Positions 2,043-63,653 of a stretch of DNA of 64,000 nucleotides are shown here, in pieces; the first letter of the stretch is position 1, and the number at the start of each line of letters is the position of its first letter. A program made the translations under genes and the position numbers. The notes beneath the pieces are model-generated. The model had not been told where the DNA came from, did not search any database, and saw only the letters and a list, made by a program, of their open reading frames with translations. The stretch lies in assembly GCA_964353785.1 (NCBI GenBank), contig CAYGWK010000002.1:40293-104292 (forward strand), given 5' to 3'. The DNA is from an uncultured Gammaproteobacteria bacterium (GTDB lineage: Bacteria > Patescibacteriota > Microgenomatia > CAYGWK01).

Positions 2043-4448
2043 TTAGGAAGGAAGATAGACTGGAGCAAAACCTTTAAGGCTTTCTCTTTTAGGAAAGATT
2101 TTCTTTTCTTTCTTAAGATAAAGAGCAACCCTCAAGGCTTCCTCAAGGCTTGAGACAAAGACAAATTTAATATCTTTTTTGACTCTGGAAGGAACGTCTT
2201 CCAAATCTTTTTTATTTTCCTTTGGTAAAACTATCACTTTAAGTCCGGCCCGATGAGCGGCAATTACTTTTTCTTTAACTCCGCCAATCTCCAAAACCCG
2301 ACCCCGAAGAGTTATTTCTCCAGTCATCCCTACTTCCCGATGGGTGGGAATTTTTGTTAAGGCGGAAACCAAGGCGGCGGCCATGGCCACTCCGGCCGAG
2401 GGTCCATCTTTTGGAACCGCTCCCTCAGGAACATGAATATGAACATCCAAATTTTTGGCAAAATTTTCTTTAAGACCCAGAGTTTTCCAGTGACTGCGAG
2501 CAAAAGAAAAAGCAGCTTGGGCTGATTCTTTCATTATATCTCCCAAGTGACCAGTCAGAATGAGTTGTCCTTTACCGGGCATTAAAGCCACTTCAATGAA
2601 AAGAACGTCTCCGCCTGCTTCGGTCCAGGCCAGACCAGTCGCCATTCCCACTTCATTTTTCTTTTCCGCCAAAGCTGAAGTGTATTTTTGTGGTCCTAAA
2701 AACTTCCGAGCCTCCAAAATTCCAACTTCTCCTTTAACTTTTTTCCCTTGGGCTTTTTTCTTAGCTACTTTTCGTAAAATCGTTGCCAACATTCTCTCAA
2801 GTTCCCGAACTCCAGCCTCTCTGGTATAGCGACGAATCACCTCGTAAAGTGCCTCATCTTGAATTTTTATTTTTTCAAGCCCGTGAGCCCTAACTTGTTT
2901 TGGCCAAAGAAATTGCCTGCCGATATGAAATTTTTCTTCCTCGGTGTATCCTGGGAAACTGATGACTTCAAACCTGTCCCGAAGCGCTGGCGGAACAGTA
3001 TCTAAAATATTCCCAGTGCAGATAAACATCACCTCTGATAAATCAAAAGGAACCTCAAGATAATGGTCCGAGAATTCTTTATTTTGTTCCGGATCTAAAG
3101 CCTCAAGAAGTGCCGCCGAAGGGTCTCCTCGAAAATCAATGCCAACTTTATCAATTTCATCAAGCATAAAAACTGGGTTTCTGGTTCCGGCGTTTCTCAC
3201 TCCTTGAATTATTCTTCCAGGCAAAGCACCAACATAAGTTCGTCTATGTCCCCGAATTTCTGCCTCATCCCGAATTCCCCCCAAAGAAATCCGAATAAAT
3301 TTTCGTCCTAACGCCCTGGCGATTGATTTTCCAATCGAAGTCTTTCCCACCCCGGGAGGTCCAATAAAACAAAGAATTGAGGGAGTCCCGACCTCTTCTT
3401 TTTTCTGTTTCTTGCTCTTTAATTTCATTACCGCCAAATACTCAACCACCCGCTCTTTCACCTTCTTTAAACCATAGTGGTCTTCCTCCAAAATTTTGGC
3501 GGCTCGGCTAATTCCGGTATTGTTGGGGGTGGCTTTGTTCCAAGGCATCAAGATAACCCAATCAAGCCAATTTTCAATGTAAGGTCGTTCTGGAGACATT
3601 GGCGGCATTTGGGCAAAACGAGAAAGTTCTTTCTCAACTTTTTTTCTTACGTCCGAAGACATTTTAGCCTGGTGGATTTTTTGCCTTAATTCTTTGACCT
3701 GCTCGTCTTCTTCACCAGTTAACTCTCCAAGTTCTTTTTCAATTGTTCTTTTTCTTTCGCGTAAAACCGCCTCTTTCATTTCTTTTTCAAACCGTTCCTG
3801 GGTTTTAGAGGTAATTGACCGTTCAAGTTCTAAAACCCTCAATTCTCGAGTCAAATATTCACCCACCTTTTTAAGTCTGTCTCCAACGACAGCCATTTCC
3901 AAAAGCGCCTGTTTTTCCTTGGCTTTTAAGTCTAGAGTTGAGGTAATTTGGTCAGTCAGCTCGGCCGAAGAAACCCCGGAGGAAAGTCTCATCAAAACCA
4001 TGATGTCAATTGGTTTTCCTAAATTGAAAGCCCGACGATATTCAGAAATCAAATGATTTGAAACTGCTTTGACTTCTTCTGTTTCTTTAATAATTTCTGG
4101 GATTTCTGAAACCTTGACTAAAAGAAAAGGGACATTTTGAACAATTTCTTCAAGCCTAATTCTAGCCAGTCCTCTGGCAATAGCAATAGTTGTTCCATCT
4201 GTCTCCAGGATATTTTCCAAGGAAACTAAGGTTCCAACCGGGTAGAGATCTTCTTTTTCTGGTTCAGCCACTCGGGGGTCTTTTTGGGTAAAAACGGCTA
4301 AAAATCGCTCAGGAGAGCCAGTAAAAGCGGCCTTAACGGCGCTGTTTGAGCGAGGACGACCGAAAGTTAAAGGAAATTCAGTGTAAGGAAAAACGACGCT
4401 GTCTCGTAAAGCCACGGCGGGGATAATTTTTGCTGATTTGTTTACCAT
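2043..4448 (-). CDS. lon: ATP-dependent Lon protease
   Basis: 801 aa; LON N-domain, AAA+ Walker A GPPGVGKTS, catalytic Ser motif PKDGPSAG, Lys motif in C-terminal protease domain. Confidence 0.95.
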   Translation of the reverse strand: MVNKSAKIIPAVALRDSVVFPYTEFPLTFGRPRSNSAVKAAFTGSPERFLAVFTQKDPRVAEPEKEDLYPVGTLVSLENILETDGTTIAIARGLARIRLEEIVQNVPFLLVKVSEIPEIIKETEEVKAVSNHLISEYRRAFNLGKPIDIMVLMRLSSGVSSAELTDQITSTLDLKAKEKQALLEMAVVGDRLKKVGEYLTRELRVLELERSITSKTQERFEKEMKEAVLRERKRTIEKELGELTGEEDEQVKELRQKIHQAKMSSDVRKKVEKELSRFAQMPPMSPERPYIENWLDWVILMPWNKATPNNTGISRAAKILEEDHYGLKKVKERVVEYLAVMKLKSKKQKKEEVGTPSILCFIGPPGVGKTSIGKSIARALGRKFIRISLGGIRDEAEIRGHRRTYVGALPGRIIQGVRNAGTRNPVFMLDEIDKVGIDFRGDPSAALLEALDPEQNKEFSDHYLEVPFDLSEVMFICTGNILDTVPPALRDRFEVISFPGYTEEEKFHIGRQFLWPKQVRAHGLEKIKIQDEALYEVIRRYTREAGVRELERMLATILRKVAKKKAQGKKVKGEVGILEARKFLGPQKYTSALAEKKNEVGMATGLAWTEAGGDVLFIEVALMPGKGQLILTGHLGDIMKESAQAAFSFARSHWKTLGLKENFAKNLDVHIHVPEGAVPKDGPSAGVAMAAALVSALTKIPTHREVGMTGEITLRGRVLEIGGVKEKVIAAHRAGLKVIVLPKENKKDLEDVPSRVKKDIKFVFVSSLEEALRVALYLKKEKKIFPKRESLKGFAPVYLPS

Positions 4449-4458
4449 GTTTTTTAGC

Positions 4459-4487
4459 AGTCTAGCACATTAAGTGCTAAATGTCAA
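4459..4487 (-). promoter_or_regulatory. sigma70-like promoter of lon (-35 TTGACA 4487-4482, -10 TAGACT 4464-4459, 17-nt spacer) containing palindrome TTAGCAC-N5-GTGCTAg
   Basis: Read on minus strand: TTGACAtttagcacttaatgtgcTAGACTgctaaaaaacATG; spacing and position relative to lon ATG (4448). Confidence 0.5.
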
Positions 4488-4523
4488 GGGGCGAAATGAA
4501 TTGCTTTGCAATTCAAACGCCCC
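4488..4523 (-). terminator. GC-clamped perfect hairpin (GGGGCG-aaa-TGAATTGC..GCAATTCA-aa-CGCCCC) abutting lon -35; possible terminator of upstream L,D-transpeptidase transcript or regulatory structure
   Basis: Inverted repeat seen directly; on minus strand followed by UUGACAUUU. Confidence 0.4.
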
Positions 4524-4526
4524 GCA

Positions 4527-4596
4527 CCCGCCGACCAATCTTGGCACGAGGCGTGTACGAATAGTACTGAAAAGCCGAGTGCGAAGATAAGGCGGG
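4527..4596. other. conserved ~70-nt structured intergenic motif, copy 1 (second copy at 27610..27678)
   Basis: Outer stem CCCGCC…GGCGGG; core gcacgaggcgtgta[c/t]gaata[g/a]tactgaaaagccgagtgc; compensatory change keeps gtac:gtac / gtat:atac hairpin. Confidence 0.5.
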
Positions 4597-4603
4597 AAGA
4601 GGG

Positions 4604-5260
4604 TTATTCGTGAATTATAATTCTTGTTCCCGGGTTATCTCCAGTTGACCTAACTGCATTTAGATTATCAACCGAGGGAGTTGTCCAGTAAAAAAGTTTT
4701 TCCGCTACTGGCGTGGGTAAATTAGTACATCCATGACTCATGGTTTGACCAAAGTTATTGTGCCAATAAGTTCCGTGAAGCCCAAAACCATTCTGATAAT
4801 ACATAATATAAGGGACGTTTGGAAGGTAATAATAGGTATGAAGAGCGCGACTTCCCCCAGACATTTTGGCATACTTAAACTTAGACCAGATTCTGTACTC
4901 GCCTGTCGGTGTCCTGGCCCATTTTCCAGTAGAAACCAAGGATTCTAAAAAAAGTCTCTCCCCTTCCCAAGCCCGAAGTTTTTGTTCAGATAAATCAACC
5001 TCAATCCATTTTTCCTCGCCAGTTGCCTCTCCCAGAACTTTTCGTTCGTTTGGGGAAAGTTCCCATCTGGCTGCCAAAGGGGCAGAAATTTCTTTTCCCT
5101 CAAAATAAGCCTGCGTCTCCCCAAACTGGAATCCTCCAGTTCCTTGACAGTGACAACCAGGTTTTTCAAGCAAAAATTTTTGGCTAGACAAAAACAAAAC
5201 CAAAATCGCCAAAAACAAAGCCGAGGAAAGAAGAATTAAGAAAAATCCTTTTTGTTTCAT
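4604..5260 (-). CDS. L,D-transpeptidase (YkuD/ErfK domain), secreted
   Basis: N-terminal signal/TM, catalytic motif HGTYWHNNFGQTMSHGCTNL (His…Ser-His-Gly-Cys). Confidence 0.8.
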   Translation of the reverse strand: MKQKGFFLILLSSALFLAILVLFLSSQKFLLEKPGCHCQGTGGFQFGETQAYFEGKEISAPLAARWELSPNERKVLGEATGEEKWIEVDLSEQKLRAWEGERLFLESLVSTGKWARTPTGEYRIWSKFKYAKMSGGSRALHTYYYLPNVPYIMYYQNGFGLHGTYWHNNFGQTMSHGCTNLPTPVAEKLFYWTTPSVDNLNAVRSTGDNPGTRIIIHE

Positions 5261-8420: not shown

Positions 8421-8996
8421 ATGCCAAACTTAGATGAACTTCTTAAAGAAAGAGCCGAAAGACAAAAAGAGTCAGATGAAAGATGGGAAGAATTAAAAAG
8501 ACAGAGAGTAGAAGAAGAGAGAAAAGATCAAGAATATTTTGATCAACAAGTTGCACCATATGAAGAGGCTTTTAGGGTAGCAGGCCTTTATATTGATTTA
8601 AAGGCCTTGTTTCATCATCTTGACACTCAAGGTGCCCCACCACGGGTTGATGAAGTTATTCACATAAGAGCACATCCGGAAAATGATTATTTTGTTTATT
8701 CCTCGATGCAACCAAAAGATAAAACACTAAGCACTGTTATGTCTGCAATGCTTCGAAGAGAACTCAGAGAATACCATAGAACTATTATCGGTTATGGATT
8801 CAGGATTGACTGGAATTATCATTCTATAGATATCCTATCGGAAATTGATCCTACGAGTGACCAACAGATATTTGTTATAAAAGAATATCAACTCGATGTG
8901 CATCATGACCGCCTCATTCCCAATCGGCCATTGCGATCCTTCAAGACTCTTGAGCCAGATGCAATTCGACAAAAACTTTTAAATATTATTACTTAA
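8421..8996 (+). CDS. hypothetical protein (charged N-terminal coiled region)
   Basis: 191-aa ORF preceded by TATAAT-like box at ~8388; no recognised domain. Confidence 0.4.
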   Translation: MPNLDELLKERAERQKESDERWEELKRQRVEEERKDQEYFDQQVAPYEEAFRVAGLYIDLKALFHHLDTQGAPPRVDEVIHIRAHPENDYFVYSSMQPKDKTLSTVMSAMLRRELREYHRTIIGYGFRIDWNYHSIDILSEIDPTSDQQIFVIKEYQLDVHHDRLIPNRPLRSFKTLEPDAIRQKLLNIIT

Positions 8997-9012
8997 ATAC
9001 ACCAGTGACTAT

Positions 9013-9038
9013 TCTAGTCTAGGCCAGTCTGCTCGGGG
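9013..9038 (+). repeat. island inter-cassette repeat R4 (tctagtctaggccagtctgctcgggg)
   Basis: Shares ctag-N-ccag-N-ctgctc-gg core with R1/R3/R5. Confidence 0.4.
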
Positions 9039-9112
9039 AATTTTTATTCCAATATTCTTAAGAATTTGAGAATAGCGAAAAAGATTACCACAATTTGAGG
9101 CAGTTTTGAAGT

Positions 9113-9141
9113 GTTGACAAACTACCATCGCGCGTTGATAC
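9113..9141 (+). promoter_or_regulatory. candidate promoter TTGACA-17-GATACT upstream of small membrane ORF
   Basis: TTGACA at 9113-9118, GATACT 17 nt downstream. Confidence 0.3.
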
Positions 9142-9195
9142 TTTTAATTTATAGTGTTATATTTTAATCATATGAAGAAAGGGAGGTGGAAAAAA

Positions 9196-9366
9196 ATGCA
9201 TGATACTGCCGGTGCGGGCGCTGTTTATGGCTTGGGTTTAGTCGGCGCAGTAGTCTATTACATCCAACATGCAAAAACATTTGGGGAAGGAGTGCTTGGT
9301 TTCCTCAAGGCCTTGGTCTGGCCTGCCATGCTAATATATAAACTTCTGGAATTTCTGAAAATGTAG
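9196..9366 (+). CDS. small hydrophobic protein (2 TM, ~56 aa); ORF track start 9154 less likely
   Basis: Strong SD GGGAGGTG 7 nt before ATG at 9196; MHDTAGAGAVYGLGLVGAVVYY… two helices. Confidence 0.45.
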   Translation: MHDTAGAGAVYGLGLVGAVVYYIQHAKTFGEGVLGFLKALVWPAMLIYKLLEFLKM

Positions 9367-9429: not shown

Positions 9430-10005
9430 ATGGAAAGAACTACAATAAGTCAAATATCGGTTACAGAGCCGAAAGAAAAAGAAAGTAATCTTGATGAATT
9501 GTACATAAAACAGGGACTAACAAATAATCAAGTTGAGCAGTTAATCTTCTACTCGAACACGGACAAAGAAGTCCAAAGATTCACTTCTGACCCAAAACGC
9601 TTCAAAGATAAAAAAGCATTCGAAAAATGGAGACAAAAAGGTAGGATTATTTACACCATAACAGACCTTGAGGATAATTTACTTGGAATTATCTGGTTTG
9701 GCGAGGAACCCTTACCTCAAAGAGAATTTACCCAAACCTTTAACCCTCAAGAATTCGGGATTACTTTTGCTATCAGAATTTATGGAGAAGCCAGAGGTAA
9801 AGGTCTAGCAAGAAAATTTATGACCGAAACTTTTAAACACCTTATGAGCTCTAGTGTTTACGAAAAAATGGAGAATAAAGGAATCTGGCTAGAGACATCC
9901 ATAGATAATACTCCGGCTCTTAAAGCCTATGAGAAATTCGGCTTCAAGCAAATCACAAATCCAAATGAGAACCAAAAGATATTAATGATTCTTAAAGAAT
10001 TTTAA
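9430..10005 (+). CDS. GNAT-family N-acetyltransferase
   Basis: Motif A-like RGKGLARKF and C-terminal …ALKAYEKFGF; 14-nt convergent overlap with gltX. Confidence 0.7.
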   Translation: MERTTISQISVTEPKEKESNLDELYIKQGLTNNQVEQLIFYSNTDKEVQRFTSDPKRFKDKKAFEKWRQKGRIIYTITDLEDNLLGIIWFGEEPLPQREFTQTFNPQEFGITFAIRIYGEARGKGLARKFMTETFKHLMSSSVYEKMENKGIWLETSIDNTPALKAYEKFGFKQITNPNENQKILMILKEF

Positions 10006-26446: not shown

Positions 26447-27196
26447 TCAATCTAGAAATTTTAAGCCGAGCATTATGCCGATTCCCAAAAGCAAACCGAG
26501 GAGTTGGACCAGAGATTTTTTGAGATTTACTTCTTTATGAAGTTCGGGAATAAGGTCTGAACCGGCAATATAAATAAAGCCGCCGGCGGTAAAAGGAACT
26601 AGATTTTCCGACAATCCAGAAATTCTTGAGCCAAAAATCAAAACAAAGACTGCTCCCAAAATTGCCACCAAACTTGAGCAAAAATTAAAAAGCAAGGCTT
26701 TTTCTTTTGAAAATCCTCCATGAACCAAAACTCCAAAATCACCAATCTCTTGAGGAATCTCATGAGCAATCACCGCCAGCGAAGTTGCCATCCCTAAAGG
26801 AAAACTTATCAAAAAACTTCCGGCGACAATGGCTCCATCAATAAAGTTATGAAGACCATCGCCTACCAAATTCATAAAAACAACTGGATGAGGATGGTCT
26901 TTTGAGGTTGGTACATGGCAGTGTCGCCAGGCGATAAATTTTTCCAAAACAAAAAATAACAAGACTCCAGTTAAAACTACCAAACCCGCTCCAAGACCAA
27001 ACCCTTGATTTTTGGAAACCTCCGGCAAAAGATGGATAAAAGTATCTCCCAAAAGTCCGCCGCAAGCAAAAGAAACTAAAACCAAAAGGGCTTTTTCTGT
27101 CTTTTCCTTTCCCAAAGCAAGGGTTAAAACACCAACAAAAGAGGCAAGACTGATAATTGCCACCGAGGCAATTGAGTAGAACCAGACTGCAATCAT
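26447..27196 (-). CDS. zupT: ZIP-family zinc transporter ZupT
   Basis: HEIPQEIGDFGVL and HNFIDG metal-binding motifs, 8 TM. Confidence 0.8.
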   Translation of the reverse strand: MIAVWFYSIASVAIISLASFVGVLTLALGKEKTEKALLVLVSFACGGLLGDTFIHLLPEVSKNQGFGLGAGLVVLTGVLLFFVLEKFIAWRHCHVPTSKDHPHPVVFMNLVGDGLHNFIDGAIVAGSFLISFPLGMATSLAVIAHEIPQEIGDFGVLVHGGFSKEKALLFNFCSSLVAILGAVFVLIFGSRISGLSENLVPFTAGGFIYIAGSDLIPELHKEVNLKKSLVQLLGLLLGIGIMLGLKFLD

Positions 27197-27199
27197 TTT

Positions 27200-27589
27200 T
27201 TAAACTTGTTCTTCTTCTGTAGGCGGCGTGGTCGTACCTCCAGGTATAGGTGTTTCCGCCGGTGGCGTCTCAGCTGCTGACGTTTCAGTTGGTGCTGTTC
27301 CAGTTGGTCCGGCTCCAGTTGTTGGTGGTGTCGGTGCTGCCGGCTCTGAGACTGGCGCTTGCCAGACAGGCATTGTGCTCATGTGTTGGTCAACTTCTAC
27401 TGCTACTTCCTCGCGAGTTTTTCCCGGAGACTGCTGCATCTGGAAATTAATCATTCCTTCTCTAACTTCCTCTTTTGTTTTTAGATTTCCACTCTCGTCA
27501 GTACAATATTTGCAATAAGGATTATCCGGCTTTCCTCCGCCATGATCGGCATCGGTGGCCATCGGTATTCCGCATGATTGGCAGTTCAT
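27200..27589 (-). CDS. zinc-ribbon (Zn_ribbon_2-like) protein with Pro/Thr-rich acidic tail
   Basis: MNCQSCGIPMATDADHGGGKPDNPYCKYCTD CxxC…CxxC; strong SD AAGGGGGTGA. Confidence 0.55.
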   Translation of the reverse strand: MNCQSCGIPMATDADHGGGKPDNPYCKYCTDESGNLKTKEEVREGMINFQMQQSPGKTREEVAVEVDQHMSTMPVWQAPVSEPAAPTPPTTGAGPTGTAPTETSAAETPPAETPIPGGTTTPPTEEEQV

Positions 27590-27609: not shown

Positions 27610-27678
27610 CCCGCCTAAAATCGCTGCACGAGGCGTGTATGAATAATACTGAAAAGCCGAGTGCTAAGATTAGGCGGG
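27610..27678. other. conserved ~70-nt structured intergenic motif, copy 2
   Basis: See 4527..4596; ends 20 nt upstream of start codon of 27589 gene and 27 nt after yifB stop. Confidence 0.5.
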
Positions 27679-27704
27679 TCTTATTCCTTCCAGTATAACA
27701 TTTT

Positions 27705-29246
27705 TCAACTTTCCTGTCTTGGTCGATATTGTAAAGCTTCGGCGATATGGCTAGGAGAAGTCTCTTTTTCACCTGCCAAATCAGCAATAGTTCGGGCAAT
27801 TTTAATTATTTTAAAATAACTCCTGGCAGTTAAATTCATCTGAATTGTTGCCTGACGAAGAAGATTTTGACACTCAAGCGAAAGCTTACAGAAGCGTTTA
27901 ACGTCCCGAGTGGTCATTTCTCCATTTGAGACAATTTTTGTTCCCTTAAATCTTTTGGTCTGAACATCTCTGGCTTTCTGAACCCGCTTTTTAATTGTTT
28001 TTGAATTCTCTGTGTCCTCCGTTTCTTTCTGTGTTCTCTGTATTACAAGTTTATCCACCTTCACCGCTGGCACATCCAAATGCAAATCTATGCGGTCAAT
28101 AATTGGTCCGGAAACTCTTTTTTGATATCGTTGAACTTGACCGGGAAGACAGGTGCAGGGTTTTACCGGGTCTCCTAAATATCCACAAGGACAGGGATTT
28201 GAAGCAGCCACCAAAATAAATTTTGCCGGAAAAGTCAAAGTTCCAGCCGCCCGGGAAACAGTCACAATCCCATCCTCCATCGGTTGCCGCAAAGCCTCGA
28301 GAACACTGCGGGGAAATTCGGGAAACTCGTCCAGGAAGAGAACGCCTCGATGGGCTAAAGAAATTTCTCCAGGGGTAGGATGGCTTCCGCCGCCAATCAG
28401 TCCTATCCGGGAAGTGGTGTGATGGGGTGAACGAAAAGGGCGATATTTTATGACCGATTCACCTGGGGGCAGGTTTCCCGTCACTGAATAAATTTTGGTT
28501 ACCTCAAATGCCTCCCTTTCGGTCAAGTCAGGCAAAATCCCAGGGAGGGCTCGGGCCAACATGGTTTTCCCCGCTCCCGGAGGACCCTTCATAAAAACAT
28601 TATGACCACCTGAGGCAGCAATTTCCAAAGCCCGCTTAACATGCTCTTGTCCCCGAACATCAACCATATCAAATTCAACTATAACCTGGGAGGTAATTTT
28701 GGAAAAAGGAGTATGGGGGACAGGTTTTATTTCCTCTCCGCCTTGCAAATGATAAAAAAGTTGCAAAAGAGAAGAAACTGGATAAATTTTAAGACCTTTG
28801 ATAACCGAGGCTTCTTTGCTATTTACTTTTGGTAGAAAAATTCTCTTAAACTTTTTCTCTTTTGCCAAAAGAGCCATGGCCAAAACGCCGTTGGTATGCC
28901 GAAGCGAACCATCTAAAGACAATTCGCCTAAAACTAAAGCGTCTTTTAAGTCTGCTTTAAGTTGTCCAGAAGCGACCAAAATCCCTAAAGCAATGGGCAA
29001 ATCATAAGAAGGACCCATTTTGGGTAAATCTGCCGGCGCCAGGTTAACGGTAATTCTTCTTGGAGGAAAGTCAGCACCAGAATTTTTTAAAGCCGACCTC
29101 ACTCTTTCTTTGGCTTCCTCAACTGCTTTATCCGGAAGACCAACAATAGTGAAGGATGGAAGTCCGGCAGAAGCAATATCAACCTCAACCTCAATAGGAA
29201 CCGACTCCAAACCAACCGTCGCTCCAGAAAAAACCCGGGCAAGCAT
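27705..29246 (-). CDS. comM: Mg-chelatase-like AAA+ ATPase YifB/ComM
   Basis: N-terminal Lon-like domain, Walker A GPPGAGKT, Walker B LFLDEF, C-terminal ChlI fold. Confidence 0.85.
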   Translation of the reverse strand: MLARVFSGATVGLESVPIEVEVDIASAGLPSFTIVGLPDKAVEEAKERVRSALKNSGADFPPRRITVNLAPADLPKMGPSYDLPIALGILVASGQLKADLKDALVLGELSLDGSLRHTNGVLAMALLAKEKKFKRIFLPKVNSKEASVIKGLKIYPVSSLLQLFYHLQGGEEIKPVPHTPFSKITSQVIVEFDMVDVRGQEHVKRALEIAASGGHNVFMKGPPGAGKTMLARALPGILPDLTEREAFEVTKIYSVTGNLPPGESVIKYRPFRSPHHTTSRIGLIGGGSHPTPGEISLAHRGVLFLDEFPEFPRSVLEALRQPMEDGIVTVSRAAGTLTFPAKFILVAASNPCPCGYLGDPVKPCTCLPGQVQRYQKRVSGPIIDRIDLHLDVPAVKVDKLVIQRTQKETEDTENSKTIKKRVQKARDVQTKRFKGTKIVSNGEMTTRDVKRFCKLSLECQNLLRQATIQMNLTARSYFKIIKIARTIADLAGEKETSPSHIAEALQYRPRQES

Positions 29247-33752: not shown

Positions 33753-33761
33753 TTTGTGCTT

Positions 33762-34068
33762 TTGGGAAACCCGTAAGCCAGATTTTGTTTTAGGTAATCA
33801 TCAATCTAGCGCTCTCAAACCTCGACCCTTGGGAAAGCATCCTTTTACCCCGTCAAACGGGGCAAGCGGGTCTTTCGGAGATTGCAGCGGGGAGGGTTGC
33901 CTCGTTTCACTCCCGCCAGAGGCGGGACTCGTCTCTGTGGCCCTATCTTGGTCCCGCCTTTAGGGCGAGACATCCTGGTATTAGTCAGGACACCCTGCTT
34001 TCTGCTGTCTGGACTTTCCTCACTAAAAAATTGAATAATTTTTCAGTGCGATTACCCAGTCTCCCAAA
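33762..34068 (-). ncRNA. rnpB: RNase P RNA (bacterial type A-like, compact ~307 nt)
   Basis: Minus strand contains P4 signature GAGGAAAGUCCAGAC near 5' end, ACAGAGACGAG, GGUAAAAGG, and 3' CUGGCUUACGGG; P1 pairing UUGGGAGAC/GUUUCCCAA; P3 hairpin ACUGAAAAA…UUUUUUAGU. Confidence 0.75.
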
Positions 34069-35087: not shown

Positions 35088-36105
35088 CTGAATAGGAATT
35101 ATACCATGCTTTAATTAACTGCTCAACTTTTTTTTGCCAGCCCCGCCGCGTAATATCAAACCGGTGAATTTTTGGGTCTCTACGAAACCAAGTCATTTGC
35201 CTGCGGGCATAAGCATGTTCATCAAACTTCCATTTCTGGACAACTTCAGCCAAAGATTTCTTGTCTTCAAAATACTCTCTCCAAACCCCATATCCCATGG
35301 CCGTCATTGCTGGCAGGTCCCAAGCACACCCTTGTTTTAGGAGTTTTCTCACTTCTTTTTCTGCTCCCATTTTTATCTGCTCGTTTATTCTTTTATCAAT
35401 CCGTTGGTAAAGAGTTTTATATGGCGCCTTTAAACCAATAAATATAGGGTTTAGGGTATAGCGTCTAGGGACTAGGGCTCGTTTTGGAGTTTTACTAGCC
35501 AGTTCTATTGCTCGAATAAGTCGTCTTGGGTTTTTTCGGTCTGAAGCATTCATTGAGGCTGCTTTTTCTGGATCAATTCTGGCCAACATTTCGAAAAGTT
35601 TTTGGACAGACAAATCCTGGAGTTTTTGCCGAAGTTCCCAATCTGGAGGAACGCCTAAAGTCTCAATCCCATCAACTAATCCTTTGATATAAAATCCTGT
35701 TCCGCCCACAATAATCGGCAATTTTTTTCTTTTCCAGATATCAGAAATTACTTTCCAAGCCAAATTTACATAATCTGCCACCGAAAACTCCTGGGCAGGA
35801 GTCACTACATCCAGAAGCCAGGTTCTTATGCCAGCAAACAAATAATAACCAATTTGAAATTTGAAATTTGAAATTTGAAATTGTTTAGGATTTAGGATTT
35901 TGAACTTAGAATTTGCTGGCAGGTCTTTCCCAGTCCCGATATCCATTCCTTTATAAACCTGTCTTGAATCCGCGGAAACTATTTCTCCATTAAATTTCTT
36001 TGCCAAACGAAGTGCTAACGACGTTTTCCCAACGCCTGTTGGTCCGCAGATAACTAAAAGTTTGTTCATGATTTTTTGTTTATTAATTCCTCCAAAATCC
36101 TCCAT
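35071..36105 (-). CDS. miaA: tRNA dimethylallyltransferase MiaA (carries 31-codon in-frame insertion)
   Basis: P-loop GPTGVGKTS, SADSRQVYKGMDIGTGK; insertion between GTGK and LLDV relative to E. coli MiaA. Confidence 0.85.
   Translation of the reverse strand: MEDFGGINKQKIMNKLLVICGPTGVGKTSLALRLAKKFNGEIVSADSRQVYKGMDIGTGKDLPANSKFKILNPKQFQISNFKFQIGYYLFAGIRTWLLDVVTPAQEFSVADYVNLAWKVISDIWKRKKLPIIVGGTGFYIKGLVDGIETLGVPPDWELRQKLQDLSVQKLFEMLARIDPEKAASMNASDRKNPRRLIRAIELASKTPKRALVPRRYTLNPIFIGLKAPYKTLYQRIDKRINEQIKMGAEKEVRKLLKQGCAWDLPAMTAMGYGVWREYFEDKKSLAEVVQKWKFDEHAYARRQMTWFRRDPKIHRFDITRRGWQKKVEQLIKAWYNSYSDAEKS
35829..35921. mobile_element. 93-nt AT-rich palindromic mini-element inserted in frame in miaA; 10-bp terminal inverted repeats TGCCAGCAAA/TTTGCTGGCA; internal (aatttgaa)x4 and (ttaggatt)x2
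   Basis: Seen in sequence; homologous core aaattgtttaggatttag…cttagaattt shared with 63561..63653. Confidence 0.5.
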
Positions 36106-51601: not shown

Positions 51602-51997
51602 TTACCAAACTTTGCAAATAACTTCTCCGCCTAAATTTTTCTTTCTTGCCTCCTTGTCAGTCACGAGTCCCAAGGAGGTAGAGATAATACTTATCCCAAG
51701 TCCCCTCGATAATTCTTTTAACTTTTTGGCTTTAAAATAAACCCTAATCCCGGGCTTTGAAATAATTTTCACTCCCGCCATAGCAGGCTTTTTATTTTTA
51801 TAAGCCAGCTCTATATTTAAGATTTTAAATTTTTTCTCTTTCGGTTTTTCAACTTCTACTTTTGCTAAAAAACCTTCCCGAGCCAAAATTTTTGCCAATT
51901 TTTCTCCTAAACTAAAATAGGGAAGTTCAATAGTCTTTCGTCTTGCCAAATAGGCATTTTTTATTCTTATTAACATATCAGAAACTCTATCGGTCAT
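51602..51997 (-). CDS. rpsH: 30S ribosomal protein S8
   Basis: S8 family. Confidence 0.9.
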   Translation of the reverse strand: MTDRVSDMLIRIKNAYLARRKTIELPYFSLGEKLAKILAREGFLAKVEVEKPKEKKFKILNIELAYKNKKPAMAGVKIISKPGIRVYFKAKKLKELSRGLGISIISTSLGLVTDKEARKKNLGGEVICKVW

Positions 51998-63560: not shown

Positions 63561-63653
63561 AAATTTCCAAATCCTAATTTCTAAGTTCTAAATAAATCCA
63601 AATGACCAAAATTCAAAATTGTTTAGGATTTAGATATTAGTGCTTAGAATTTT
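63561..63653. mobile_element. second copy (~93 nt) of AT-rich palindromic mini-element in rpsL-rpoC spacer
   Basis: Core aaattgtttaggatttagatattagtgcttagaattt vs miaA copy; left arm aaatcctaatttctaagttctaaa is near reverse complement of right arm. Confidence 0.45.

Follow-up and report, generated by a model that had tools for sequence, protein, structure and literature searches.

Non-coding hairpin repeats of the ERIC/IRU and Correia/NEMIS types, of about 70–150 nt, reside in transcribed intergenic regions in both orientations and beside promoters; their sequence is highly conserved across species whereas their locations differ, and they have documented effects on mRNA processing by RNase III and RNase E. 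The stretch of DNA analyzed here (64,000 nt of contig CAYGWK010000002.1, from now on the window) contains two copies, at positions 4527–4596 and 27610–27678, of an intergenic element that resembles these repeats in being a hairpin of their size range, in occurring in both orientations, in its proximity to promoters and in a sequence well conserved across species but located differently. It differs from ERIC and from the Correia repeats of Neisseria in that it shares no sequence similarity with them, belongs to another host phylum, has neither a TA target duplication nor an IHF site, and is also built into the leaders and trailers of rRNA operons. As far as Rfam and literature searches show, the element is a previously undescribed repeat family. 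We interpret it, with a probability of roughly 0.55, as an interspersed extragenic hairpin repeat of the REP/ERIC/MITE kind from Microgenomates-type Patescibacteria that was probably exapted as RNA punctuation; a serious alternative is that it is a dedicated RNA signal whose dispersal was secondary.

The element also resembles REP/BIME and REPIN sequences. It is an extragenic, imperfect palindrome in multiple copies, with a defined structured strand. Copies of either orientation occur singly, as inverted doublets or in tandem arrays; the element often lies about 15 nt or less from stop codons, orthologous positions are kept, and there is a RAYT-family gene in the lineage. However, it is around twice as long as a REP, has three conserved internal loops and a core that is conserved across class-level divergence, and the number of copies per genome, which is only an estimate, seems low; besides, the RAYT-like gene lacks flanking copies and some of the target duplications are long. 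The GTAG/CGTC tag of REPs is also missing, the ends being CCCKCC...GGMGGG and the flanks CTTG, GCA(GA), TCAAG or AAG. Compared to MITEs, the outer stem is by construction a terminal inverted repeat, but the flanking repeats vary in length. Patescibacteria have tiny genomes with little space for repeats, and their non-coding elements are almost unstudied.

Two copies of the element in the window

We designate with L-numbers (L001, L105, etc.) the related genome and metagenome loci compared with the window, and as pattern strand the one showing the conserved tandem G.A and purine-rich loops, which is the plus strand for both window copies. The 39-nt core GCACGAGGCGTGTAYGAATARTACTGAAAAGCCGAGTGC occurs twice in the window, both times on the plus strand (4544–4582 and 27626–27664), and its expected number of occurrences by chance is 0 (100 dinucleotide shuffles). 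The two copies are 88% identical over 60 nt, without gaps, and are both enclosed by CCCGCC...GGCGGG (4527–4532/4591–4596 and 27610–27615/27673–27678), so the original prediction of two copies of about 70 nt sharing a core and a closing stem described the sequence correctly. It was equally right about the compensatory change: the only differences in the core, C4558 to T and G4564 to A, are the two partners of a single pair of the tip hairpin (GTAC:GTAC versus GTAT:ATAC), so that two of two changes preserve pairing. The flanks of copies 1 and 2 are unrelated to each other and the copies are therefore not parts of a larger duplication. In a search of the 64 kb using a covariance model with filters off, only these two copies were found, the next-best match having E = 0.42.

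The predicted fold is one long hairpin with the outer stem, a short middle stem and a 9-bp stem broken by tandem G.A/G.A, followed distally by the asymmetric GU/UGAAAA loop and by a tip of 4 bp capped by the loop GAAUA. In copy 1 the outer stem (4527–4532/4591–4596) leads to the middle stem ATCTT/AAGAT, and then to GCAC (4544–4547) paired to GTGC (4579–4582), the tandem G.A (4548–4549/4577–4578), GGC (4550–4552) paired to GCC (4574–4576), the internal loop GT (4553–4554)/TGAAAA (4568–4573), the tip stem GTAC (4555–4558)/GTAC (4564–4567) and the tip loop GAATA (4559–4563). Copy 2 has the same architecture, with GTAT/ATAC as tip stem. Two sequence subtypes recur across genomes and the window contains one of each: copy 1 has GACCAATCTTG...GAAGATAA linkers (78.2 bits, E = 3e-19 with the covariance model), and copy 2 belongs to the commoner subtype, with TAAAATCGC...TAAGATTA linkers (95.7 bits, E = 4e-24).

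Folding energies for the plus strand are –39.5 (copy 1) and –33.3 kcal/mol (copy 2), with z-scores of –5.9 and –4.1, versus –33.3 and –25.2 kcal/mol (z-scores of –3.7 and –1.7) for the minus strand, which is the gene strand. The stably structured strand in the window is thus the plus strand, antisense to all four flanking genes.

Family size, distribution and covariation

Genomes were scanned with the exact pattern, using one genome per species, and metagenomes with a complementary pattern. The genome scan yielded 24 loci, around 20 of them true, mostly from metagenome-assembled genomes (MAGs) of Patescibacteria, labeled as Woesebacteria, Shapirobacteria, Roizmanbacteria, Levyibacteriota, Collierbacteria or "Patescibacteria group"; 8 further matches are from third-party assemblies labeled as "uncultured Gammaproteobacteria," a label that is not confirmed. 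The metagenome scan listed 98 stretches; many of the loci came from groundwater sites (Hainich H41/H43/H51, and JGI sets from groundwater and sediment). A covariance model (R1), built from an alignment of 84 sequences (A3), produced 122 plus 28 matches on the collected loci, and one more, with several per locus (e.g., five copies in 5.8 kb in L120), including diverged copies beyond the reach of the exact patterns.

The original claim of a conserved structured element thus holds, with more than 100 further copies and strong covariation once these are aligned. The first 122 matches comprise 100 distinct sequences, which form the rows of alignment A4; 89.7% of its cells are paired, and changes on both sides occur in 22 of the 23 pairs (334 cells). 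None of 500 shuffles reached any of the observed covariation measures, pairing fell to 26–43% in controls with slid partners, and RNAalifold predicted the same helices from an independent alignment. G.U pairs are rare (approximately 1.5% of cells) and nearly all the variation in stems is fully compensatory. In diverged copies, Watson-Crick pairs replace the tandem G.A and the tip hairpin can be swapped or extended, but they retain the GU/UGAAAA loop, the GC/AA (or G.G) loop and a tip loop of the G-N-R-N-A type, whose variants include GAAUA, GAACA and GGAUA.

No Rfam family matched the element at gathering thresholds along the whole window, and relaxing the search to E ≤ 10 on positions 4450–4660 retrieved only chance-level matches to miRNA and CRISPR-DR models; on the related loci, Rfam matched only rRNA, tRNA and one group II fragment. 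A scan of viral contigs gave 0 matches. Literature searches, including those with literal sequence strings, did not retrieve any description of the element, and a paper on rRNA insertions in bacteria from the candidate phyla radiation makes no mention of such a hairpin (PMC11270868).

Three contigs (L001, L026, and L058) end within the element, and in another five loci (L036, L070, L081, L102, and L106) it is found within 200 nt of contig ends. The element probably breaks short-read assemblies of these genomes, since contigs ending inside it are expected for a repeat of this sort.

Insertion polymorphisms and genomic placement

Comparison of orthologous loci indicates that insertion or duplication gives rise to new copies, and that a neighboring GC hairpin often moves along with them. 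Locus L113 contains an extra block of 87 nt (GC hairpin-GCA-motif-AAG) exactly at TTGTCAAG|CCCC, while the orthologous site of L062, with flanks 79% identical, is empty. A site in domain VI of the 23S rRNA gene constitutes a second case of presence/absence (see below), and L052 and L100 have flanks that are 100% identical but differ in the unit that occupies the 23S-5S spacer. In the window, copy 1 is linked via GCA (4524–4526) to a perfect, GC-closed hairpin of 36 nt, GGGGCG...CGCCCC (4488–4523, plus strand). This arrangement of hairpin, GCA(GA) and motif is a recurrent unit that was inserted elsewhere as a single block. At many loci, the window included, the unit is bordered on the left by GTCAAG (at least 14 loci) and on the right by (TC)AAG, where (T)CAAG or AAG recurs (AAG at 4597–4599 in the window). 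The left border in the window, TGTCAAG (4482–4488), is in reverse complement the –35 hexamer TTGACA of the lon promoter; GTCAAG thus coincides, on the opposite strand, with the –35 TTGACA of a promoter that is well formed and directed away from the unit, as seen for lon in the window, L105, and L063, and for a tRNA-23S promoter in L100.

Direct repeats of 14–29 nt flank 8 of 96 copies, whereas none of 13 nt or longer was found in about 475 controls with mismatched flanks. In four of these eight copies the right repeat begins precisely where the outer stem ends. What is duplicated is the 3′ end of a gene with its stop codon (L061, and rpsI in L003/L023), the start of a gene (L102) or, in L053, the initial 17 nt of a tRNA, so that insertion left an intact copy of the gene. 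Overall, the flanking repeats are variable: around 10 loci have TCAAG, 8 loci have repeats of 14–29 nt, and the 23S site has none; a generic test for 5-mer target duplications was not significant (29 copies versus a background of about 21). In L023 (3164–3479, minus strand), three tandem copies with a period of around 118 nt follow rpsI, and their spacers are decayed duplicates of the last 35 nt, approximately, of the S9 coding sequence, indicating that the array grew by duplication of the gene end plus the element.

Copies occupy short intergenic gaps, which explains their distance of a few nucleotides to stop or start codons, and all lie outside open reading frames (ORFs), none of which is interrupted. 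An in-frame insertion into proteins, as with Rickettsia palindromic elements, was ruled out, for the open frames that span copies start at the copy. Loci L008 and L113 have copies in consecutive gaps between co-directional genes, and in some loci nearly every gap contains one; there are also inverted pairs (L048, L070, L087, L101, and L095) and tandem arrays (L023 and L113).

The genes adjoining the copies form 140 sequence clusters, and 103 neighboring proteins were assigned to 96 Pfam families. The commonest is L10, found three times, followed by EF-Tu-type GTPase, S9, NusG, GroES, Lon, Pth, SpoU and others, with two occurrences each. With respect to the pattern strand, unique contexts comprise approximately 24 with both neighbors on the opposite strand, 14 with both on the same strand, 21 divergent and 16 convergent. 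The constant orientation and coherent gene set that characterize riboswitches or gene-specific leaders were therefore not found. It had been proposed that the element was a candidate cis-regulatory RNA, small RNA or protein-binding DNA element. A cis-regulator connected with its position 3′ of genes or with the genes downstream is not supported, in view of the occurrence of all four arrangements, the 96 families (Lon and GroES appear only twice each, alongside L10, S9, NusG and EF-Tu-type GTPases), the many rRNA and tRNA copies and the antisense disposition of the structured strand in the window; a small RNA or a structured DNA element would be a possible alternative.

Conservation in place and strand preference

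Once in place, copies are kept under strong purifying selection, as deduced from sequence comparisons. Copy 1 and its orthologue in L105, likewise between the YkuD gene and lon, are identical in 65 of 70 positions, whereas the identity of the flanking coding DNA is only 55–77%; of the five substitutions, two compensate each other within one pair. However, the adjacent hairpin is wholly different in the window and in L105, so that independent insertion of the same subtype at the lon site is possible. Copy 2 and its L044 orthologue share 68 of 69 positions, with flanks 83–95% identical, and copies associated with rpsI are shared by genomes so distant that S9 identity is only 56%.

Of 98 copies, 94 fold more stably as the pattern strand when RNA parameters are used, and 92 when DNA parameters are used, a difference largely due to the purine loops and the conserved G.A pairs. 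Where stems are well supported, G.U/U.G pairs outnumber A.C/C.A pairs on this strand 33 to 16, and 9 to 2, in small numbers, where the neighbors are on the opposite strand. This last ratio does not support the idea that the hairpin is selected on whichever strand is transcribed. Around one third of the copies, including both from the window, are antisense to both neighbors and are nevertheless equally canonical and conserved; moreover, in arrays of co-directional genes, copies whose reverse complement is in the sense of the genes exceed those with the pattern strand in that sense. The same strand is thus structured whether it is transcribed or not, which is hard to reconcile with a function purely at the RNA level. 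Of 95 copies, 64 have the pattern strand on the C-rich strand, and GC skew is negative throughout the plus strand of the window, but adjacent inverted copies and a bias of merely 64:31 rule out a strict replication-strand rule. Pairing in trans between sense and antisense copies is not favored either, because tip stems differ within a genome and each copy compensates its own changes.

Copies in rRNA and tRNA operons

Many copies are within rRNA and tRNA operons. A sense copy is located about 25 nt upstream of the 5S rRNA gene in L031, L071, and L106, and 72 nt upstream in L100. The 16S leaders from L095, L048, L087, and L101 contain a sense copy immediately behind a promoter/boxA-like segment and, closer to the gene, another copy that is inverted; further sense copies exist in the 16S leaders of L114, L121, and L123 and in the 16S trailers of L005 and L095, and inverted copies in the 23S leaders of L039, L065, L089, and L100. 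The sequences adjoining these copies are complementary leader and trailer strands, for the 16S a leader CAAUCAAGAAGUGGUAGGAA and a trailer UUCCUACCACUUNUUGRUUG, with an analogous pair for the 23S, so that the element forms part of long inverted repeats on either side of both rRNAs. In L095, the copy of the leader and that of the trailer share a derived tip, but each hairpin is maintained by its own compensatory changes. In L069, a copy is situated between a promoter-like segment and a tRNA and, in L100, between two tRNAs. Additionally, L100, L047, and L055 have a copy inside domain VI of the 23S, where it extends the tip of a small helix; the Microgenomates 23S genes of L031, L032, L039, and L071 have no interruption there.

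Inverted copies bracketing 16S and 23S, and the helix-tip insertion in domain VI, are reminiscent of rRNA processing stems and 23S intervening sequences, which are substrates of RNase III, and the context of the element fits such a role, with putative cleavage. Unlike processing stems, however, the element is also found in untranslated regions (UTRs) of mRNAs and upstream of promoters, and the compensation within the hairpin of each copy goes beyond leader-trailer complementarity. By inspection only, the short stem and the GAAUA pentaloop, which matches G-N-R-(N)-A, resemble lambda nut boxB and rrn boxA-boxB, and in one subgroup the rRNA and L10 leaders have a boxA-like segment ahead of the motif (in L032, for instance, GATTTCTTTAACAAG); conversely, most copies are outside leaders, many are antisense, and no N-like partner is known. 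A likeness to the 5S rRNA helix II/III arm (UGAAAC-GCCGUAGCGC versus UGAAAA-GCCGAGUGC) was discarded as superficial, because the pairing partners differ and the 5S model did not match.

A subgroup of copies (L037, L060, L018, L090, L048:1006–1086, L095:2951–3031, L101:2367–2446, L061:3499–3578, L032, L025, L069, and L072) shows upstream signals around 60 nt before the motif, which consist of a canonical terminator (GC hairpin plus T-run) and then a promoter-like segment. In these, a TTGnnnn following the T-run is complementary to the 5–8 nt immediately 5′ of the motif (e.g., TTGTGCA...TGCACAA), and both segments enclose an AU-rich, boxA-like sequence, ACCTTAAAAA...AAATAG. The genes downstream include rplJ, greA, 16S rRNA and tRNA genes. 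Among all copies, complementarity of at least 6/7 at the 5′ side was seen in 23 versus 6.6 expected.

Other insertions were noticed in the same rRNA genes. L100 has a 23S insertion of about 750 nt (8570–9320) with a LAGLIDADG-type ORF at the usual site in domain V, as well as the element inserted in domain VI (9450–9530), and because of these insertions the Rfam LSU envelope ends early. WYLVGF-like motifs are also present in L095, where a match to a D1-D4 fragment of a group II intron (1030–1113, 46 bits) directly follows the copy from the 16S trailer and precedes a LAGLIDADG-like ORF, so this 16S may have its true 3′ end past an insertion.

A RAYT-like gene within comEC

A tblastn search with IS200, IS608 and RAYT proteins against the 0.86 Mb of collected locus DNA found one family, represented by a Y1_Tnp/RayT-like protein of 178 aa in L068/L086, which has thousands of homologues. 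The gene, encoding a RAYT-like Y1 (IS200-type) transposase, is 1.8 kb from a copy in the motif-bearing locus L068 (2762–3298) and occupies a conserved site in Microgenomates, between the halves of comEC for the Competence and metallo-beta-lactamase domains. The order comEA-comEC(N)-rayT-comEC(C) is kept in L124 (10001–10534) and L128 (10001–10549). The presence of an HUH single-strand DNA nuclease within a DNA-uptake operon is unusual. No RAYT-like sequence was found in the window. As for the IS200/IS605 family, the unit abuts GTCAAG and ends with (TC)AAG, the empty site being TTGTCAAG|CCCC, but its left hairpin is not conserved and long duplications are present.

Interpretation of the element

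According to the interpretation that we favor, copies are inserted into short intergenic gaps in either orientation, often with a target duplication of 14–29 nt, and each would be transcribed passively within the host transcript. The stable hairpin could then punctuate transcripts, as a site for processing or stability; alternatively, it might insulate a gene from the next promoter, or occlude the ribosome-binding site where a GGAGG-like 3′ arm serves as Shine-Dalgarno. In rRNA operons, inverted copies would join the long leader/trailer repeats around 16S and 23S in the manner of processing stems. In the window, the reverse complement of copy 1 would be in the 3′ UTR of the YkuD gene, ahead of the GC hairpin and a CIRCE-controlled lon promoter, and that of copy 2 at the 5′ edge of the Zn-ribbon/ZIP transcript.

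Several points weigh against this interpretation. Passive transcription and punctuation are themselves inferred. No transposase was found among the 103 direct neighbors, the RAYT-like genes are not flanked by the element, with no copy within 10 kb on either side in L124, L128, and L130 (58 kb), and neither a terminal GTAG/CGTC tag nor a target duplication of fixed length was seen. Copy number seems low, with an extrapolated value of around 5–25 per genome, whereas REPs usually amount to hundreds. Moreover, unpaired nucleotides are near-invariant across the organisms with divergent S9 proteins, although the near-invariance of the core is partly a consequence of the collection scans, which demanded exact core patterns. 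Together, the invariant loops, the purifying selection and the regular placement in rRNA operons fit a functional RNA recognized by a conserved factor better than a selfish repeat.

The element might instead be a functional RNA module on the pattern strand, with a conserved cellular factor as its reader; candidates would be an antitermination complex, a ribosomal protein, or a factor for rRNA processing or assembly. Operons for rRNA and tRNA would then be its primary sites, and those in mRNAs (rplJ, greA, rpsI, lon region) would be secondary, coupling these genes to the factor, with dispersal also secondary. We consider this a tentative but real possibility. It agrees with the near-invariant loops and the G-N-R-N-A tip, the sense copies before 5S, the copies in 16S/23S leaders and trailers and directly upstream of a tRNA, the conservation in place, the excess of G.U over A.C on the pattern strand, and the subgroup with a promoter/boxA-like segment before the motif, where L10 or GreA genes 8–16 nt downstream have the 3′ arm, AGGAGG(G), as their Shine-Dalgarno. 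It is at odds with the third of copies that are antisense to both neighbors and lack a credible promoter for the pattern strand, yet are canonical, with the predominance of copies in reverse complement in co-directional arrays, with clear insertion polymorphisms and with the rarity of G.U pairs. We rank an autonomous repeat above a dedicated RNA signal mainly because the structured strand is independent of transcription. A variant in which the rRNA operons of Patescibacteria harbor a functional structured RNA, serving there as a signal for processing, antitermination or assembly that a conserved factor reads, and in which this RNA was copied genome-wide by an RNA-mediated or template-switch mechanism would explain the precise boundary at the base of the hairpin, the variable boundary at the other side and the duplications of 14–29 nt, but we regard it as doubtful. 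Should such a SINE-like structured RNA prove true, housekeeping mRNAs would be wired to ribosome synthesis.

It is also unlikely that the element is a REPIN/PATE-type single-stranded DNA element, mobilized in trans by an HUH (Y1) transposase, for which the RAYT-like protein embedded in comEC would be the candidate, and inserted 3′ of a TCAAG-like target. Consistent with it, the strand-specific hairpin is kept whatever the direction of transcription and prefers the C-rich strand, GTCAAG and (TC)AAG are like the left and right cleavage sites of IS200/IS605-type elements, and a Y1_Tnp/RayT homologue is close to a copy in L068, with its position kept in L124 and L128; nevertheless, the RAYT-like genes lack flanking copies, adjacent copies can be inverted, the sequence of the hairpin beside the motif is not conserved, long and variable target duplications are foreign to HUH transposition, and the window itself is devoid of RAYT-like sequence. 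An intrinsic terminator, possibly bidirectional, seems quite improbable: the outer stem is GC-rich, many loci have the element 0–25 nt from stop codons and some copies have U-rich right flanks, but most copies lack a U-tract, canonical terminators with a GC hairpin and a U-run exist beside other copies, no terminator-like call was made at either window copy, copies occur inside 23S, rRNA leaders and 5′ UTRs, and termination has no need for conserved internal loops. Scarcely tenable is a gene-specific cis-regulatory RNA (riboswitch, thermometer, protein-binding leader or trailer) for lon and the Zn-ribbon/ZIP operon, perhaps responding to heat shock via a CIRCE-like half-site. The association of the motif with lon recurs in L105 and L063, and that with the Zn-ribbon gene in L044, L034/L062, and L113, and the Shine-Dalgarno adjoins copy 2 in the window; the 96 neighbor families in both orientations, the lon promoter that separates copy 1 from lon, the structured strand being antisense to the genes, and a half-site that is simply the consensus of its subtype, with the real CIRCE elsewhere (4454–4480), all speak against it. 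Control of a riboswitch-like or heat-shock kind is thus very unlikely, and a self-cleaving ribozyme is unlikely for an unbranched hairpin.

The family has more than 100 members, textbook covariation, loops invariant across deep divergence, insertion polymorphisms and a regular place around 16S, 23S and 5S. If it is mainly a mobile repeat, it would be a new REP/ERIC-type family in a phylum with none described, according to Rfam and literature searches, as well as a useful marker for the dynamics of these genomes and a reason why assemblies break. If, instead, a cellular factor reads the conserved loops, the family would point to an RNA-processing or ribosome-biogenesis signal new for these organisms.

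Gene context in the window and the lon promoter

All genes flanking both copies are on the minus strand, and their arrangement is as originally read, with lon and the Zn-ribbon gene next to the copies. Copy 1 lies upstream of lon (2043–4448) and 7 nt from the stop codon of the YkuD L,D-transpeptidase gene (4604–5260), whose 3′ UTR includes the reverse complement of the copy. Copy 2 is 26 nt from the stop codon of yifB/comM (Mg-chelatase-like ATPase; 27705–29246) and, 6 nt past its reverse complement, is the GGGGGTG Shine-Dalgarno of the Zn_ribbon_2 gene (27200–27589), after which comes a ZIP transporter gene (26447–27196). No credible plus-strand promoter was found ahead of either copy.

The lon promoter (TTGACA-17-TAGACT with TG; 4459–4487, minus strand) is, along the gene strand, directly downstream of the GC hairpin and copy 1, which is therefore outside the lon transcript; orthologous lon promoters were read in L105 and L063. 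The ATG of lon, at 4448, is only about 11 nt past the –10, making the mRNA nearly leaderless. A complete CIRCE-type repeat, TTAGCAGTC-N9-AAGTGCTAA, with two mismatches and 0.02 occurrences expected by chance, spans 4454–4480 and overlaps the –10 region, and the same operator is present on the orthologous lon promoters of L063 and L105; lon thus looks HrcA-controlled in these organisms, judging by this operator. A scan for TTAGCACTC-N9-GAGTGCTAA with up to three mismatches had this repeat as its single match in the window. The CIRCE-like half-site noted in the original prediction, GAGTGCTAAG, does exist in copy 2, which includes GAGTGCTAA, identical to one CIRCE arm. The resemblance to the CIRCE/HrcA operator is coincidental, however, since the string is the consensus of the commoner subtype and has no second arm at N9 spacing. 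For the annotation of the window, this removes a tempting regulatory story for lon and locates the real heat-shock operator.

Within the end of yifB there is a promoter-like site, AAGACA-17-TATACT with TG (27692–27720, minus strand), a candidate by consensus match; between its end and the reverse complement of copy 2 there are 13 nt, and its predicted start is around 7 nt before that reverse complement. L062 shows TTGACA-18-TACGAT at the homologous position. The Zn-ribbon/ZIP mRNA may therefore have the reverse complement of copy 2 as a hairpin at its 5′ terminus.

Other features of the window

The window includes a second intergenic repeat of 44 nt, AAATTTGAAATTGTTTAGGATTTAGGATTTTGAACTTAGAATTT, with two copies (35871–35914 and 63609–63652) that are 82% identical and a weaker third copy at 51819–51862. 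Positions 33758–34067 on the minus strand contain an RNase P RNA of bacterial class A (121 bits, versus a threshold of 100 bits), whose 310 nt lack several segments of the model; such a short molecule is consistent with a reduced genome.

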